NCBI RefSeq assembly: GCF_054482525.1
Contig: NZ_CM137006.1
Length of the DNA stretch: 64,000 nt
Reading direction: 5' to 3' (one strand)
How positions within the stretch are numbered: the stretch's first letter is position 1; the number at the start of each line of letters is the position of its first letter. Made by a program: the position numbers and the translations under genes. Below the pieces are notes generated by a model that was not told the DNA's origin, made no database searches, and was given only the letters and a program-made list of their open reading frames with translations. This document shows positions 16,245-45,752 of this stretch, one piece after another.

Positions 16245-16329
16245 ATAAAAAAACCTGCTGGTGAGGCAGGTTCTTTGATTTACTACTTTCAGGCCTAACA
16301 CCACGGCCTGTGCAACATCGTGTTCCAAC
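16245..16329 (-). ncRNA. orzO: Orz-type antitoxin sRNA (predicted), copy 1
   Basis: Minus-strand promoter TTGCAA-17-TATAAT (-10 at 16336-16341). Minus-strand intrinsic terminator: stem 16252-16258/16266-16272 followed by a U-run. The 5' 20 nt (16310-16329) are complementary to the zor 5' UTR (16476-16495) with 1 mismatch. Ends are predicted, and the O/P naming is arbitrary. Confidence 0.65.
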
Positions 16330-16852: not shown

Positions 16853-16938
16853 AAAATAAAAGAACCTGCTGGTGAGGCAGGTTCTTTTATTTACTACTTT
16901 GATGTTAAGTTACTGATAGTGCAACATGGCATCTCAAC
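16853..16938 (-). ncRNA. orzP: Orz-type antitoxin sRNA (predicted), copy 2
   Basis: Same architecture as copy 1: minus-strand -10 at 16945-16950 and terminator stem 16861-16869/16877-16885. The 5' 20 nt (16919-16938) match the cognate UTR at 17085-17104 with 2 mismatches. Confidence 0.6.
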
Positions 16939-35698: not shown

Positions 35699-35733
35699 TA
35701 CTCCCCCCCAGTACCTGATACTACCCCCCAGTA
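35699..35733. promoter_or_regulatory. two RcnR operator sites of the TACT-G6-N-AGTA type in the rcnA-rcnR intergenic region
   Basis: TACTCCCCCCCAGTA (35699-35713) and TACTACCCCCCAGTA (35719-35733). They match the published RcnR operator consensus read on the complementary strand. Confidence 0.8.
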
Positions 35734-35781
35734 GATTAATAGTGCTATGATTTTTCATGTTCTTGTTAACCAGGTGTTGCC

Positions 35782-36054
35782 ATGTCTCATACCATCCGTG
35801 ATAAACAGAAACTGAAAGCGCGTGCCAGTAAGATTCAGGGCCAGGTCGTGGCGCTCAAGAAAATGCTCGACGAGCCGCACGAATGCGCTGCAGTTTTACA
35901 ACAGATTGCTGCTATCCGTGGCGCGGTAAACGGTCTGATGCGGGAAGTGATTAAAGGTCATCTGACGGAACACATCGTTCACCAGGGGGATGAGCTAAAA
36001 CGTGAAGAAGATCTGGATGTCGTTCTGAAGGTGCTGGATTCTTATATCAAATAA
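35782..36054 (+). CDS. rcnR: CsoR/RcnR-family Ni/Co-responsive repressor
   Basis: 90 aa ([22 protein letters not shown]..), matching K-12 RcnR. Confidence 0.94.
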
Positions 36055-36091
36055 TTTATTAACGCTATTGTAAAACTGCCGTTTTTCCTCG

Positions 36092-36120
36092 TTTACAACG
36101 GGTGCGCTGGACATTACCAT
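36092..36120 (+). promoter_or_regulatory. putative native thiM promoter, now separated from thiMD and pointing into the island integrase
   Basis: TTTACA-17 bp-TACCAT lies immediately upstream of the left copy of the riboswitch sequence. This is a prediction by eye. Confidence 0.45.
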
Positions 36121-36142
36121 CCTCCTCTGCGATTTATCATCG

Positions 36143-36224
36143 CAACCAAACGACTCGGGGTGCCCTTCTGCGTGAAGGCTGAGAAATACCCGTATCACCT
36201 GATCTGGATAATGCCAGCGTAGGG
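36143..36224 (+). repeat. attL: 82-bp direct repeat, a 5' portion of the TPP (thi-box) aptamer that lacks the 3' strand of the closing helix and the expression platform
   Basis: Identical base for base to 44033-44114. It contains CTGAGA and the other thi-box core sequences. It diverges from the thiM leader after ..GCGTAGGG. Confidence 0.9.
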
Positions 36225-36307
36225 GGCCAAAATAGTCTTGAAAATTATGTGGTTGTATCTCTTTTTGACCATAAATCATGCTGTTAAGGTACAAAAAGGG
36301 GTCGTTT

Positions 36308-37615
36308 ATGAGGTCAAGAACTCTCCCATACACATTTCAGCGAAACGGTAATTACTATCTACAAATCCGGCTTTCGGATGGTCGGATATACAAAAAATCA
36401 CTTTTTACTGACAGTTATCGCGAAGCATCGGCGTTGATGATTGGCCTTACTCCGCACATTCCTTTCGTTAAATCACTCGCTACTCCGTTGCCGCAATTTA
36501 ATAAGTTTGTTTCAAACTTGATCGCTTCGTCACGTAACGTAATGATTCCGTTGCCACTCCCTCAGCAATTGAACAATATTTCTAAAGAAGTTTTGCAGCT
36601 TCAACCACCAGCCAAACCGGAAAAGGTACTAACACTTGCTGATGCGTGGGCTATGTACAAGGAGGAAAGAGGTCGAAATTGGACAAAATCGATCTCAATA
36701 GCAAATGAGCGTTATATGGAGGTATTGCTTGTTGTCTTGGGAAAAGAAACAGACGTAACGGCAATCACCAAACAAGATATTAAGCGAGTAATGGAAACTG
36801 TCGAAAACTTACCAAAGCGTGTAGTGCAACCGTATAGGTCAATGACTATTCAGCAACTAATCGAATGTGATGATGTGCTGCCAGAGGATTTAGTTGGTGC
36901 TGAGGCTGTACATAAGCACCTTAAAATCTACAAATCGTTATTCAAAACATTTCTGACTGAAAACAAAGATATTCTATCTAAGTCTCCGACTGATGGAATA
37001 GTAGCGGCACCATCCAAAGCTAGGTTTGGTGCATACAGTGCAGCAGAAATGAAAAAATTTGTAGGATGGGCACTAAAGCAGCCTGATGGATGGCAGAAGT
37101 GGATCACTTTGTTGTTGGCGTACACAGGAGCCAGAAGAGGTGAGATTGCTAAACTGGAGAAGTCGCAGATCAAATTTGATGAAGATAGCCAGCGGCACTA
37201 TCTTCTGATCGCGGAAAGAAGGCTGGGTAAAACTGAGAATGCTACAAGACAGGTAGTGATTCATCCCAAACTGATTGAGTGGGGGTTTCTGGATTTTGTT
37301 AACCGCCAATGGAAAGAGAAAATCTTTTCGGAAGTCTCAGGTCGAAATATGTCAAAGATAGGTAAAGTTCTTTCAGATGTTCGTGATCAGCTTGATATTC
37401 CTTATCTTGATGATTATGGGCAGCGGCGCTTGGTGCATAGTTTCCGGCATACTATGATTTCTACTTGTTTAGCTGGTTGGGTGAGTAATTTGGCGCATCT
37501 GCAACAGGTGGTAGGTCATGAAAAGAGTGGAGTAGGGATTACCCAGCGTTATCTGCACACATTCCCACTTTCCACCGTTTGTTATGTGATCGATGGTCTT
37601 TGTTGGGAGACTTAG
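36308..37615 (+). CDS. tyrosine recombinase / integrase
   Basis: The ORF in the track starts at 36278. I prefer the ATG at 36308, after an AAAGGGG Shine-Dalgarno. N-terminal arm-binding-like RNGNYYLQIRL, then catalytic-domain motifs ARRGEI, HSFRHT and GHEKSGVGITQRYLH (Tyr). Confidence 0.88.
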   Translation: MRSRTLPYTFQRNGNYYLQIRLSDGRIYKKSLFTDSYREASALMIGLTPHIPFVKSLATPLPQFNKFVSNLIASSRNVMIPLPLPQQLNNISKEVLQLQPPAKPEKVLTLADAWAMYKEERGRNWTKSISIANERYMEVLLVVLGKETDVTAITKQDIKRVMETVENLPKRVVQPYRSMTIQQLIECDDVLPEDLVGAEAVHKHLKIYKSLFKTFLTENKDILSKSPTDGIVAAPSKARFGAYSAAEMKKFVGWALKQPDGWQKWITLLLAYTGARRGEIAKLEKSQIKFDEDSQRHYLLIAERRLGKTENATRQVVIHPKLIEWGFLDFVNRQWKEKIFSEVSGRNMSKIGKVLSDVRDQLDIPYLDDYGQRRLVHSFRHTMISTCLAGWVSNLAHLQQVVGHEKSGVGITQRYLHTFPLSTVCYVIDGLCWET

Positions 37616-37743: not shown

Positions 37744-38469
37744 ATGGTTAAAAATTTAGGCAAAAAATACAAGTATGGCGATCAACCGATAAGAGCTATT
37801 ACCATACAGATAATTGCTAATCAGTTTGGTGGGGCTGCAACGGCTAAGCAGGTAGATGATTATCTTAGAAAGCTATTTCCATCTTATAAAGATAATACTT
37901 GGCTCAATTTAATTGCTAATACAGTTAATTGTAAGCGGAGCTACTGGAGTTTCAACAAAACTGCCCGACGAACTGATGATGTAACTCATCGGCATCATAA
38001 GTATGACCGATTGTTCAAGCGTGGAAATATTTTTGAAATCTATCAACCATCTGTGCACGGTATTTGGGAATTATACCAGGATTTAGAAGGGATGTGGCGT
38101 TATCGTCAAGTAAAATCGGTTTTCGAAGAAGCTGTTGAGACGGCTGCAAAATTATCTTCAGTGGAACGAAAGCAAATTTTAGCGACAGAAAGTAAAATCC
38201 CGGAACTAATCGAAGTAACAACACGAGTTTATAAACGAAGCCCATATGTAGTTGCTGAAGTTCTTTTGAGAGCAAATGGAAAATGTCAATATTGTAAGCG
38301 AGATGCTCCTTTTCTAAAGGAAGATGGTACTCCATTTCTAGAAGTTCATCATATTGAGTGGCTTTCAAAGGGGGGGGAGGACTCTGTGGAAAATGCTATT
38401 GCATTATGTCCTAATTGCCATAGACAAGCCCATTATGGCGATCTGACATTACTACCTGTTAATAAATAG
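37744..38469 (+). CDS. HNH nuclease-domain protein with an uncharacterised 170-aa N-terminal domain (McrA-like architecture)
   Basis: C-terminal CQYCKRDAPF..EVHHIEWLSKGGEDSVENAIALCPNCHRQAH is a canonical HNH/zinc-ribbon motif. No adjacent methyltransferase gene. Confidence 0.8.
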   Translation: MVKNLGKKYKYGDQPIRAITIQIIANQFGGAATAKQVDDYLRKLFPSYKDNTWLNLIANTVNCKRSYWSFNKTARRTDDVTHRHHKYDRLFKRGNIFEIYQPSVHGIWELYQDLEGMWRYRQVKSVFEEAVETAAKLSSVERKQILATESKIPELIEVTTRVYKRSPYVVAEVLLRANGKCQYCKRDAPFLKEDGTPFLEVHHIEWLSKGGEDSVENAIALCPNCHRQAHYGDLTLLPVNK

Positions 38470-40643: not shown

Positions 40644-40673
40644 AGTGAGTGCTATGTGATGATTGGTAGTAAC

Positions 40674-40782
40674 GGTAGGTCACTGTGAACTAGGGGGGTA
40701 GGTCACTGTGAACTAGGGGGGTAGGTCACTGTGAGCTAGGGGGTAGGTCACTGTGAACTAGGGGGTAGGTCACTGTGAACTA
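40674..40782 (+). repeat. five contiguous iterons (GGTAGGTCACTGTGAACTAGGGG, period 23/23/22/22 bp): putative vegetative origin
   Basis: Read directly from the sequence. Copy 3 carries one A-to-G change. The array is immediately followed by an AT-rich tract. Confidence 0.85.
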
Positions 40783-40877
40783 CAATAAGACTATAATAAG
40801 ACTATTAATAAAACTATATTAGATTATTAATTAGATCATAATAATAATATTCTTTATATCTATATATATATGATCTT
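40783..40877. other. AT-rich tract next to the iterons (candidate DNA-unwinding element)
   Basis: Almost pure A/T, with internal AATAAGACTAT x2 and a TATATATATAT run. Confidence 0.5.
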
Positions 40878-42468: not shown

Positions 42469-43158
42469 ATGATTAATCAACTAACTTTTACAAAACACTA
42501 TGACACGTTTGATAATGTATCAAAGATTTATTCTGATAAATTCCCTCAAGGAAAAGATTTAGATCTATTACATATTGTGCTTTATTTTCGATTCCTTAGT
42601 TATCAGGAAAACAACCTTAATTGTTATGAAAGTCACGAAACATTAGCTAAGATTTTTAAGTCTTCAGCGTCAACAATTAAACGTAAGATAAACGATCTTA
42701 AAGAGATGGGATTATTAGAAACATCCCCACATCCTGATCCGTATATTTCATCTTTGATTTACAATGCTCTCCCTCTCACAGATGCACATATTACTCCCCC
42801 AGGAGAATCATCACTCTCTGATCTTTCTGAGGCAGAAGAAGCACAGGAACAACCTAAAGGCCATAAACAGCCTTCTTTTGATGTTCTTGATGATTGGGAT
42901 ACGCCTTTACCCTGGGAGACGGAAGAAACACCTGTTTCATCAAGTGAAAAAGTAGCTAATGATAATGAGGAGGATGTGTTAGAGAATTTTGCCTCTCTTA
43001 TCATCCAGGAGAAACACACAAGAACAGGAGGAGCATCATTTATTGAGTTTGCAAATTCACTAGCTTGTAGATACGGGCTAAAACGACCAAATGGTATTGA
43101 GGCATATTTTTCTAAGAATTACCCAAATATATACGATGACTTTGATATTCCATTTTAA
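42469..43158 (+). CDS. putative replication initiator (winged-helix N-terminal domain, acidic C-terminal half)
   Basis: HETLAKIFKSSASTIKRKINDLKEMGLLE is an HTH/wHTH like those in DnaD/Rep-type initiators. AAGGAG Shine-Dalgarno. It is encoded near the iteron array. The function is inferred. Confidence 0.55.
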   Translation: MINQLTFTKHYDTFDNVSKIYSDKFPQGKDLDLLHIVLYFRFLSYQENNLNCYESHETLAKIFKSSASTIKRKINDLKEMGLLETSPHPDPYISSLIYNALPLTDAHITPPGESSLSDLSEAEEAQEQPKGHKQPSFDVLDDWDTPLPWETEETPVSSSEKVANDNEEDVLENFASLIIQEKHTRTGGASFIEFANSLACRYGLKRPNGIEAYFSKNYPNIYDDFDIPF

Positions 43159-43169
43159 TAAGGAGGGTT

Positions 43170-43415
43170 ATGATTCAATATTTAGTAAAAAATCAAGTAG
43201 ACAGAATTCAGTGTAATGACACAGGAAAACGCATCTACGAGACACTTGTTTACCTCTATAAAGGAAAGCCAACACCGCTAAAATATAGCGATGTGTTACA
43301 TCGAGCAGGTTGCTCTGAGTCAGGTTTAAAATTCTGGCTGAAACAGCTATCAAATTTCGGTGTTATTGAAATGAAAGAGCTGTCTTTTTCTACATTCAAC
43401 CTCAAGAAGTTATAG
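43170..43415 (+). CDS. 81-aa winged-helix-like small DNA-binding protein candidate
   Basis: AAGGAGGG Shine-Dalgarno. The YSDVLHRAGCSESGLKFWLKQLSNFGVIE segment looks like a wHTH. Confidence 0.55.
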   Translation: MIQYLVKNQVDRIQCNDTGKRIYETLVYLYKGKPTPLKYSDVLHRAGCSESGLKFWLKQLSNFGVIEMKELSFSTFNLKKL

Positions 43416-43483
43416 AAAATAGAATTCATCTATTCCACGCTCTAATTCTATTTCTCTGTTTAATATAAAAGGAAAACATTATT

Positions 43484-43561
43484 ATGGTAATAGCTATGTG
43501 GTGGTTGTTGTTTTTTATGCTCGTAGAAACATATGCAAGTAAGTCTGGAAAACAAAAATAA
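43484..43561 (+). CDS. candidate 25-aa hydrophobic peptide (MVIAMWWLLFFMLVETYASKSGKQK)
   Basis: Hand-translated. AAGGA lies 10 nt upstream. It has a hydrophobic N-terminal part and a basic tail, like type I toxins or small membrane peptides. There is no other support. Confidence 0.25.
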   Translation: MVIAMWWLLFFMLVETYASKSGKQK

Positions 43562-43580
43562 TATATTGATGATTTGTTTT

Positions 43581-43820
43581 TTATAACTTCGTGGTGTCAA
43601 GTCCAGCAGCTTTGAGTCGCTCGGTAAGATTTCTCATTTTGCTGAACTCTGTACCAAAGCTGGCTTTAAGTCCTACACCTTCACAAAACTCTTTTGCCGT
43701 AACCTTTTTCAGATGGTCAGCATATTTGATCATCTGGAGGTGCATTTCCATCGTTTGGCTATTTCGTGGTGCGCTGCTAATGGCTTGCTTAATGTTCTCG
43801 TAGATCTGGGTTTCTGTCAT
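43581..43820 (-). CDS. 79-aa protein of unknown function at the right end of the island
   Basis: Clean ORF, MTETQIYENIKQAISSAPRNSQ... It is the last gene before attR. Confidence 0.6.
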   Translation of the reverse strand: MTETQIYENIKQAISSAPRNSQTMEMHLQMIKYADHLKKVTAKEFCEGVGLKASFGTEFSKMRNLTERLKAAGLDTTKL

Positions 43821-44032
43821 TTTTTATCTCACCTATCAAATTTAGATAAATAATATAAATTAGCAAATTAAGATAATCAATAGTTTTTATCATCTGAATG
43901 ATAGATGTTAAATGTTTCTTTTTCATTTCTGATATGGGGTACAAAATGGGGTACACAGAGAAGAAGCAATTAATGGAGGCGAGCTTGCATCTGCAAGCCA
44001 CTTCCCCTAAGCTGGCACAAAATATAGAGATT

Positions 44033-44166
44033 CAACCAAACGACTCGGGGTGCCCTTCTGCGTGAAGGCTGAGAAATACCCGTATCACCTGATCTGGATA
44101 ATGCCAGCGTAGGGAAGTCACGGACCACCAGGTCATTGCTTCTTCACGTTATGGCAGGAGCAAACT
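44033..44166 (+). promoter_or_regulatory. complete TPP (thi-box) riboswitch of thiM; its first 82 nt form the attR repeat
   Basis: CGACTCGGGGTGCCCTTCTGCGTGAAGGCTGAGAAATACCCGTATCACCTGATCTGGATAATGCCAGCGTAGGGAAGTC matches the well-studied E. coli thiM aptamer. It is followed by the native expression platform and a GGAG Shine-Dalgarno. Confidence 0.92.
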
Positions 44167-44955
44167 ATGCAAGTCGACCTGCTGAGTTCCGCGCAATCTG
44201 CGCACGCGTTACACCTTTTTCACCAACATTCCCCTCTTGTGCACTGCATGACCAACGATGTGGTGCAAACCTTTACTGCCAATACCTTGCTGGCGCTCGG
44301 TGCATCGCCAGCGATGGTTATCGAAACCGAAGAGGCCAGTCAGTTTGCGGCTATCGCCAGTGCGTTGCTGATTAACGTTGGCACGCTGACGCAGCCACGC
44401 GCACAGGCGATGCGTGCCGCCGTTGAACAGGCAAAACGCTCTCAAACACCCTGGATGCTTGATCCAGTAGCGGTGGGTGCACTCGATTATCGCCGCCGTT
44501 TTTGTCTGGAACTTCTGTCTCATAAGCCAACCGCCATACGTGGTAATGCTTCGGAAATCATGGCATTAGCTGGCGTTGCTAATGGTGGACGGGGAGTGGA
44601 TACCACTGACGCCGCAGCTAACGCGATACCCGCTGCACAAACACTGGCACGGGAAACTGGCGCAATCGTCGTGGTCACTGGCGAGATGGATTATGTTACC
44701 GATGGACATCGTATCATTGGTATTCACGGTGGCGATCCGTTAATGACCAAAGTGGTAGGAACTGGCTGTGCATTATCGGCGGTTGTCGCTGCCTGTTGTG
44801 CGTTACCAGGCGATATGCTGGAAAATGTCGCATCTGCCTGTCACTGGATGAAACAAGCCGGAGAACGCGCAGTCGCCAGAAGCGAGGGGCCAGGCAGTTT
44901 TGTTCCACATTTCCTTGATGCGCTCTGGCAATTGACGCAGGAGGTGCAGGCATGA
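44167..44955 (+). CDS. thiM: hydroxyethylthiazole kinase
   Basis: 262 aa ([32 protein letters not shown]..), matching K-12 ThiM. The stop overlaps the thiD start. Confidence 0.95.
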
Positions 44956-45752
44956 AACGAATTAACGCTCTGACGATTGCCGGTACTGATCCGAGTGGTG
45001 GTGCGGGGATTCAGGCCGATCTTAAAACCTTCTCGGCACTTGGCGCTTATGGTTGCTCAGTGATTACTGCACTGGTGGCGCAAAATACCCGTGGCGTACA
45101 GTCGGTGTATCGCATTGAGCCTGATTTTGTCGCCGCCCAGCTCGATTCGGTGTTCAGCGATGTGCGAATCGACACCACTAAAATCGGTATGTTGGCGGAA
45201 ACCGATATTGTTGAAGCGGTGGCAGAACGGTTGCAACGTTATCAGATCCAAAACGTGGTACTCGACACCGTTATGCTGGCAAAAAGCGGCGACCCGCTGC
45301 TTTCACCTTCGGCGGTTGCTACGCTGCGCAGTCGATTATTGCCACAGGTTTCATTAATAACGCCAAACTTGCCCGAAGCTGCTGCCTTGCTCGACGCGCC
45401 ACACGCGCGCACCGAACAGGAAATGCTGGAACAAGGGCGATCGCTGTTGGCGATGGGCTGTGGCGCAGTGCTAATGAAAGGTGGTCATCTGGATGATGAA
45501 CAAAGCCCGGACTGGCTGTTTACCCGCGAGGGTGAACAACGGTTTACGGCACCGCGCATTATGACCAAAAACACCCACGGCACTGGTTGTACACTCTCTG
45601 CGGCGTTGGCTGCACTACGCCCGCGCCATACAAACTGGGCAGACACCGTCCAGGAGGCAAAAAGCTGGCTTTCATCGGCGTTAGCCCAGGCCGACACGCT
45701 GGAAGTTGGTCACGGTATTGGTCCGGTTCACCACTTCCACGCCTGGTGGTGA
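44952..45752 (+). CDS. thiD: hydroxymethylpyrimidine / phosphomethylpyrimidine kinase
   Basis: 266 aa ([27 protein letters not shown]..), matching K-12 ThiD. Confidence 0.95.

Follow-up and report, generated by a model that had tools for sequence, protein, structure and literature searches.

This study concerned a 7.9-kb insert in a 64,000-nt stretch of contig NZ_CM137006.1 (NCBI RefSeq assembly GCF_054482525.1), the whole of which is referred to below as the window. The sequence was that of Escherichia coli, with 100% identity to strain SCU-102 across the region. The focus was the left junction of the insert, where the promoter-like site of thiM, a copy of most of the aptamer of the thiM thiamine pyrophosphate (TPP) riboswitch, and a tyrosine integrase gene (int) follow one another. 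The features of this junction, in window coordinates, were:

35782-36054, + strand: rcnR, the host gene left of the site (open reading frame, annotated in the identical RefSeq record)
36092-36120, + strand: native thiM promoter-like site, TTTACA-17-TACCAT (promoter scan; identical at the empty K-12 site)
36128-36144, + strand: hairpin of 6 bp predicted for the native leader's 5' end (UGCGAU/AUCGCA), in both the minimum free energy (MFE) and the centroid structures
36143-36224: left-junction (attL) copy of an 82-bp direct repeat, reaching from the P1 5' strand to G83, P5 included
36146-36241, + strand: Rfam TPP aptamer match at attL (RF00059), with two of the five P1 pairs non-canonical ('v' marks)
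36214-36224: CCAGCGTAGGG, the probable core or crossover region, being the last stretch common to all attL copies before island-specific sequence
36225-36307, + strand: island-side int leader (P' arm), in place of A84, A85, the P1 3' strand and the thiM expression platform (K-12 alignment)
36308-37615, + strand: tyrosine integrase gene, 435 aa (Pfam, PHROG, RefSeq)

Comparison with the empty K-12 site revealed a precise insertion. The left junction was identical to K-12 up to ...GCGTAGGG, and the right junction (attR) was identical to it from CAACCAAAC... on. The direct repeat was 82 nt long and 100% identical in its two copies (36143-36224 and 44033-44114), spaced 7890 bp apart, and both the repeat and the Rfam matches were clearly beyond chance. 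The element thus has flanking direct repeats, an integrase gene at one end and a known empty site, as expected of a site-specific integrative island, and 36092-36310 is the left junction of a 7.9-kb island integrated inside the thiM TPP aptamer. A preliminary description of this DNA had proposed an integrated element with its attL here, and had placed the thiM promoter, the 82-bp aptamer copy and the int ATG where the sequence, the scans and the RefSeq annotation also put them. An error of assembly, or a repeat arisen by coincidence, can be virtually dismissed as the source of the duplicated aptamer: 125 complete E. coli genomes, as well as 16 independent metagenome contigs, show the same structure, and the empty site is known.

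The integrase was recognized by Pfam (PF00589, 29.5 bits, cutoff 27.1) and by PHROG (PHROG 1, integrase, 9e-27), and is a tyrosine-type recombinase in RefSeq, which also starts it at 36308. The R...H-x-x-R...Y signature is readable in its translation as TGARRGE, HSFRHT and QRYLH. The promoter-like site is on the + strand, with hexamers at 36092-36097 (TTTACA) and 36115-36120 (TACCAT) and a 17-nt spacer. The scan gave four promoter-like sites where 2.2 were expected from shuffles, so that the hexamers alone are not beyond chance, and the arrangement TTTACA-17-TAC(C/T)AT also occurs 5' of thiM leaders in other genera.

Both aptamer copies are annotated as riboswitches in RefSeq, and both exceeded the RF00059 gathering score of 54.3 bits, at 61.3 bits for attL (36146-36241, E = 1.4e-9) and 71.2 bits for attR (44036-44132). 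The attL copy retained P2 to P5 and the conserved junction bases. After the repeat end, ...GCGTAGGG, it continued with GGCCAAAAT, as against AAGTCA in the native leader. G83 is the last residue of the repeat in the thiM numbering used by Lang et al. (PMC2018614), so that A84, A85 and the P1 3' strand have been replaced by island sequence at attL, where GGCCA stands for the native AAGUC. The loss of AAGTC, already described from the letters of the window, was confirmed by alignment to the empty K-12 site. The attL copy therefore lacks both A84/A85 and its native closing helix P1, and no expression platform conserved among relatives was found there.

An integrase was present at this thiM junction in 193 of 5426 complete E. 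coli genomes, 125 carrying the window type and 68 a sister type (~73% nucleotide identity). In a survey that scanned one genome per species, integrases 64-84% identical were found in Buttiauxella, Lelliottia, Enterobacter, Serratia, Leclercia, Citrobacter, Klebsiella, Pantoea, Rahnella, Erwinia, Mangrovibacter and others. A TPP aptamer copy ended 84-89 nt 5' of the int ATG in 28 attL sites of Enterobacterales. These junctions were of two types: in the A type GCGTAGG(G) was followed by GGCCGAAATTCGGCC..., and in the B type GCGTAG was followed by TCCTGGCGATTATCC, an inverted copy of the P5 hairpin that flanks the core region. Many attL sites were preceded by the right end of another element, forming tandem arrays. 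In two genomes (L003 2700-3000 and L059 3650-3920) the sequence directly left of int belonged to a prophage-like element with DUF1441 and ClpP-like genes and TGTGTGGTCA repeats, which carried no more of the aptamer repeat than its last 43 nt. The thiM aptamer attachment site is therefore shared by three kinds of element or more, often arranged in tandem. No match to the integrase was found in phage collections and no close match in plasmid collections (two at 37-42% identity); the single IMG/VR match pointed to a prophage-like neighbour and not to a viral form of the island.

More distant relatives of the integrase (~30% identity) occurred in marine Gammaproteobacteria, 55-90 nt 3' of rnpB and on the same strand; in these loci (L033-L055) rnpB ends near 2825-2915 and int begins at about 3001. 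In one of them (L039 6140-6342) the 3' end of rnpB was perfectly repeated over 141 nt, at a distance of ~3.2 kb downstream from where int starts. The rnpB-type int genes start with ATGGTACAAGAACTGGTACAAAC, a GGTACAA repeat that they have in common with the int start of the TPP-type islands. The integrases therefore form a clade that targets structured RNA, with one branch dedicated to the thiM aptamer and a sister clade to rnpB.

The origin of the two aptamer copies was approached through the variation among islands. Three loci (L005, L007 and L009) had island sides that were 100% identical, from CCAGCGTAG to 17 nt inside int, next to aptamers with no more than 79-87% identity. The converse was seen in E. 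coli, where three island lineages, 72-75% identical in their island sides, all carried the exact E. coli aptamer. In the metagenome contigs the island side was invariant (115 nt compared, from the repeat end into int), and the host side varied with Escherichia variants such as TTTG for TGCG in P3. These patterns indicate that the attL aptamer is the host's own and that the 5' part of the attR copy is island-borne. Because the attL aptamer tracks the host and not the island, crossover most likely took place in CCAGCGTAG(GG), where the repeat ends on the right, at the 3' end of P4/P5. The analogy of tRNA and rnpB targets would place it at the repeat's left end instead; this was considered as well and was rejected on the same agreement of the attL aptamer with the host.

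Under this scheme the integrase would recombine within the thiM TPP aptamer, and integration would cut the riboswitch after G83. Promoter and aptamer of the host, the latter from the P1 5' strand through P5, would stay on the left, fused to the island int leader, and the P1 3' strand, the platform sequestering the RBS (ribosome-binding site) and thiMD would be shifted 7.9 kb rightward. At the right end the island's own aptamer 5' part, placed behind an outward promoter-like element, would rebuild a complete riboswitch. The features of this end were:

43936-43957, + strand: GGGGTACAAAA and GGGGTACACA repeats, candidate arm-type Int sites, with two or three copies in sister islands
43985-44013, + strand: outward promoter-like element, island-borne, TTGCAT-17-TAAGCT (pattern conservation)
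44033-44114: attR copy of the repeat, its aptamer 5' part island-borne
44036-44132, + strand: complete TPP aptamer with native P1, 5' of thiM (71.2 bits)
44167-45752, + strand: thiM-thiD operon

The order of arm-type repeats, promoter-like element, leader and aptamer 5' part is that of the island right ends, at which GGGGTACA forms the candidate arm-type repeats. The pattern TTGCNN-17-TAnnCT was conserved at >12 right ends of A-type islands, and the B type has TTTACA-17-TACTAT. The right end thus carries what restoration of the target would need: an aptamer 5' part that makes the attR aptamer complete and a conserved promoter-like element in front of it. Two int-less remnants between rcnR and thiM bear on the latter. 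In E. coli O157:H7 Sakai (L002 4534-6940) the native thiM promoter is deleted directly 3' of the rcnR stop, and thiMD lies behind the island TTGCAT-17-TAAGCT element and the island aptamer 5' part; in BL21 (L076 1-4080) the remnant is truncated by IS1. Because both remnants retain the island right end 5' of thiM, the outward element would seem to act as a replacement promoter for thiMD; both strains are presumably able to make their own thiamine.

The preliminary description had gone further and suggested that expression of int may be modulated by an altered TPP sensor, which would link excision to thiamine metabolism. A P1-less construct of the same E. coli thiM aptamer gave no response to a 10-fold excess of TPP and hardly any to a 100-fold excess, and P1 formation was concluded to be strictly required for binding (Lang et al., PMC2018614). 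Native control of thiMD acts after initiation, through the aptamer, a stem that sequesters the RBS and AUG, and Rho termination in thiM codons 20-34 (PMC5499598). All elements of that regulatory platform are now at attR. A search for a surrogate P1 found that complementarity to the P1 5' strand is not conserved across the 28 attL sites; only the window lineage stood out. TPP control of int is therefore not supported, as A84, A85 and the P1 3' strand are gone and there is no conserved replacement for P1. An integrase alone is normally insufficient for excision, so that a link between thiamine and excision would be a further step, and this too finds no support. On balance we think it probable that the attL aptamer is a severed remnant, a by-product of the choice of integration site and not an evolved sensor.

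Whether thiM transcripts reach int is a separate matter. A scan of 35700-37000 gave no terminator-like site and no + strand promoter-like site in 36121-36550, and neither a sigma-70-like promoter nor an intrinsic terminator was found in the 83-nt spacer on the island side. Orientation and aptamer-int spacing are conserved among attL sites. With no terminator or island promoter in between, and with this conserved arrangement, read-through of thiM promoter transcripts into int is plausible and even likely. The proposal that the thiM promoter drives int thus stands as regards the same-strand fusion, and a strong terminator, which would have spoken against it, was looked for and none was found; the promoter itself is not known to respond to thiamine, as thiMD is controlled after initiation. 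Transcripts of a constitutive thiM promoter would then run into int, synthesis of Int would be limited by the island leader, either by a hairpin over the Shine-Dalgarno (SD) sequence or by GGTACAAAA sites possibly bound by Int, and TPP would be expected to have no part in it. The leader contains the following predicted structure:

36261-36298, + strand: hairpin of CUUUUUG (36261-36267) with CAAAAAG (36292-36298), covering the upstream A-rich part of the int SD region

This hairpin overlaps a GGTACAAAAAGGGG motif (36288-36301), and the int SD had a mean P(unpaired) of 0.16 in the predicted fold. The SD-covering helix (CUCUUUUUGUC with GACAAAAAGGG) was conserved in 17 A-type leaders and showed no covariation. 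The GGTACAAAA motifs coincide with it and recur at the island right end and at int starts, so the motif of the SD region may instead represent DNA binding sites for Int. An RNAalifold consensus of the 17 A-type leaders contained the two aptamer arms, the SD-covering helix and, at the AUG, an invariant closing helix of only 4 bp (CUCG with UGAG/UGGG). Its covariation term was only -0.56 kcal/mol, with covariation confined to P3, the post-aptamer hairpin and a hairpin inside the SD-covering helix. The post-aptamer hairpin is GC-rich, follows the aptamer directly in most A-type islands and shows G-C/A-U covariation, and it could dampen read-through; it has been lost in the window lineage. A further promoter-like site, TGGTCA-16-CATAAT, lies on the - strand inside the int leader (36244-36271) and points toward the aptamer; chance probably explains this match, as the number of sites was within the shuffle expectation.

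Several of these leader features would also suit an integrase that is insulated from thiM transcription. In that case int would be expressed from an unrecognised island promoter, or only from the outward promoter across attP after excision, and thiM transcripts would be stopped by Rho in the leader or by an Int roadblock at the GGTACAAAA sites. An untranslated leader of ~180 nt with a mostly paired SD is a situation that favors Rho, and the GC-rich hairpin is present in most A-type relatives. The same int persists in the two genomes with the prophage-like neighbour (L003 and L059), behind half an aptamer (43 nt) and with no thiM promoter directly 5' of it, and even the relatives that target rnpB have GGTACA repeats overlapping the start of int. 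On the other side are the lack of a sigma-70-like site on the + strand or an intrinsic terminator in the scanned spacer, the destruction of the GC-rich hairpin in the window lineage, and a poor U-tract after that hairpin even where it is intact. We regard insulation as unlikely, though worth keeping in view beside read-through.

The window lineage has one feature of its own that could revive the idea of a sensor, a long-range pairing between the aptamer and the int start:

36148-36156, + strand: AAACGACUC, which contains the P1 5' strand; 5' arm of the long-range helix
36234-36237, + strand: AGTC noted in the preliminary description; missing from sister islands
36299-36307, + strand: GGGUCGUUU, 3' arm of the same helix, up to the int AUG

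The AGTC had been taken for the sole complement to the P1 5' strand; its position is correct, but GGGUCGUUU pairs with that strand as well. In this rival account GGGUCGUUU would re-close the aptamer, and the helix, stabilised by TPP, would occlude the int translation start, forming a chimeric riboswitch. The int start of an Escherichia-specific lineage would have evolved to pair with the orphaned P1 strand, and Int would be TPP-responsive both in the integrated state and across attP. The helix has 9 bp (eight Watson-Crick and one G-U), ends exactly at the AUG, and was equalled or exceeded in length in only 4 of 500 shuffles. Its arms were invariant in the E. coli genomes and the 16 metagenome contigs, save for one terminal mismatch in L073.

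A number of points weigh against a simple remnant beside a restored operon. The long-range helix was present in the MFE and centroid structures, with a pair probability of ~0.5 for the attL RNA and for the reconstructed attP RNA alike. The window lineage has lost the post-aptamer hairpin of its relatives (GGCCGAAATTCGGCC) and gained two complements to the P1 5' strand (AGUC and GGGUCGUUU), and this loss and gain could reflect selection for an RNA function. The start site of thiM transcripts and their read-through are inferred, and the outward promoter is a weak match to consensus (3 of 6 positions per hexamer) that was not called by a scan of 43300-44400.

Even so, a chimeric switch seems very improbable. 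The match was found post hoc in one of 28 loci, and such a match would be expected in about one in five surveys of this kind; the helix was missing from the other 27. Sister islands in the same host (E. coli C and O8:H8), with the same P1 5' strand, had no such complementarity. A84 and the A85:U14 pair would be missing, and ~75 nt would be inserted between P4 and the surrogate P1. There was no covariation, because the island side of the window-type junction was invariant in the metagenome contigs and so offered no variation to score. A truncated-transcript fold did pair GACU with AGUC, but the aptamer interior was misfolded there. Folding of the leader in silico, as had been suggested, did yield the 9-bp helix, but the z-score of the whole leader was only -0.71, and a switch acting on Int would again not normally cause excision by itself. 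The severed remnant remains the reading that we prefer.

Apart from the integrase, the island encodes an HNH protein, a helix-turn-helix (HTH) regulator, a serine recombinase, a replication-initiator-like HTH protein and an HTH_73 protein. A gene-free, AT-rich stretch at 40671-40787 contains five tandem iterons of 22-23 bp (GGGGGTAGGTCACTGTGAACTA); it resembles an iteron origin, which suggests that the island may replicate after excision. The replication-initiator-like HTH protein is encoded downstream of the iterons, at 42469-43158. The sister-type island of E. coli C is 11.2 kb long, with SIR2, HigB and ImmA cargo. The slot right after int varied: it was occupied by an HNH endonuclease in the window (37744-38469), by a DUF262 protein in 19KM1776 (L003 4491-6062), and by SIR2 plus HigB and ImmA/IrrE in E. 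coli C (L057 13553-17764), and it looks like a variable slot for anti-phage defence. Elsewhere in the window, and unrelated to the island, a zor-orz type I toxin-antitoxin pair is marked by two OrzO-P antitoxin RNA genes (RF02083, 92 and 90 bits) on the - strand at 16247-16322 and 16858-16931.

The interest of this locus lies in the choice of target and its consequences for annotation, more than in the proposed regulation. What is new is a whole integrase clade that has a riboswitch aptamer for its attachment site and would restore that riboswitch from an island-borne promoter and aptamer 5' half; the integrate-and-restore rule for structured RNA thereby comes to cover cis-regulatory RNA as well as RNA genes. 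In ~190 E. coli genomes the attL copy is labelled by RefSeq and Rfam as a TPP riboswitch before an integrase, and regulon reconstructions could wrongly list integrases as thiamine-regulated. In BL21 and O157:H7 an island-derived promoter-like element and leader stand directly 5' of thiM, which matters for riboswitch work in these strains. Thiamine-controlled excision would be notable if true, although the evidence is against it, and a chimeric switch, if it existed, would be a case of a mobile element re-using a riboswitch through its own integration.

Islands and prophages that integrate at tRNA, tmRNA, 6S, 4.5S and RNase P RNA genes restore their targets (Islander/TIGER, PMC7192596; ffs site, PMC12540744). 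The thiM island is like them in that int adjoins attL on the same strand as the RNA element, the identity block duplicates part of the RNA, the island carries a piece that would keep the target working, and relatives of ~30% identity lie 3' of rnpB. It differs in that its target is a cis-regulatory aptamer in an mRNA leader and not a stand-alone RNA gene, and in that the functional unit is at attR, where the island would supply a promoter and the 5' part at the end distal to int and not a 3' end next to int, leaving the attL copy non-functional. The TIGER supplement names 'Eco824.15.TPP_RNA', 'Kox2.11.TPP_RNA' and 'Mav1.21.RNaseP_RNA' without description (PMC7192596). The two TPP_RNA islands (E. 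coli and Klebsiella oxytoca), likened here by name alone, very probably use the same integration site, and the entries give no anatomy, integrase clade, promoter replacement or consequence at attL. Apart from these names, no paper was found in the literature that deals with an element integrated into the thiM riboswitch or with the fusion of a riboswitch to an integrase.

Compared with the E. coli thiM riboswitch (RF00059; PMC5499598, PMC2018614), the attL copy keeps P2, P3, P4, P5 and the junction to G83, but lacks A84, A85, the P1 3' strand, the stem that sequesters the RBS and AUG, and the Rho target in thiM codons 20-34. The gene 3' of it is an integrase and not a thiamine gene. Promoters joined to genes across element junctions are known from the junction promoters of insertion sequence circles and from read-through at the Tn916 circle joint. 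The thiM island would be similar, since in the excised circle its outward promoter-like element would face int across attP, and after integration the host promoter would take that place.

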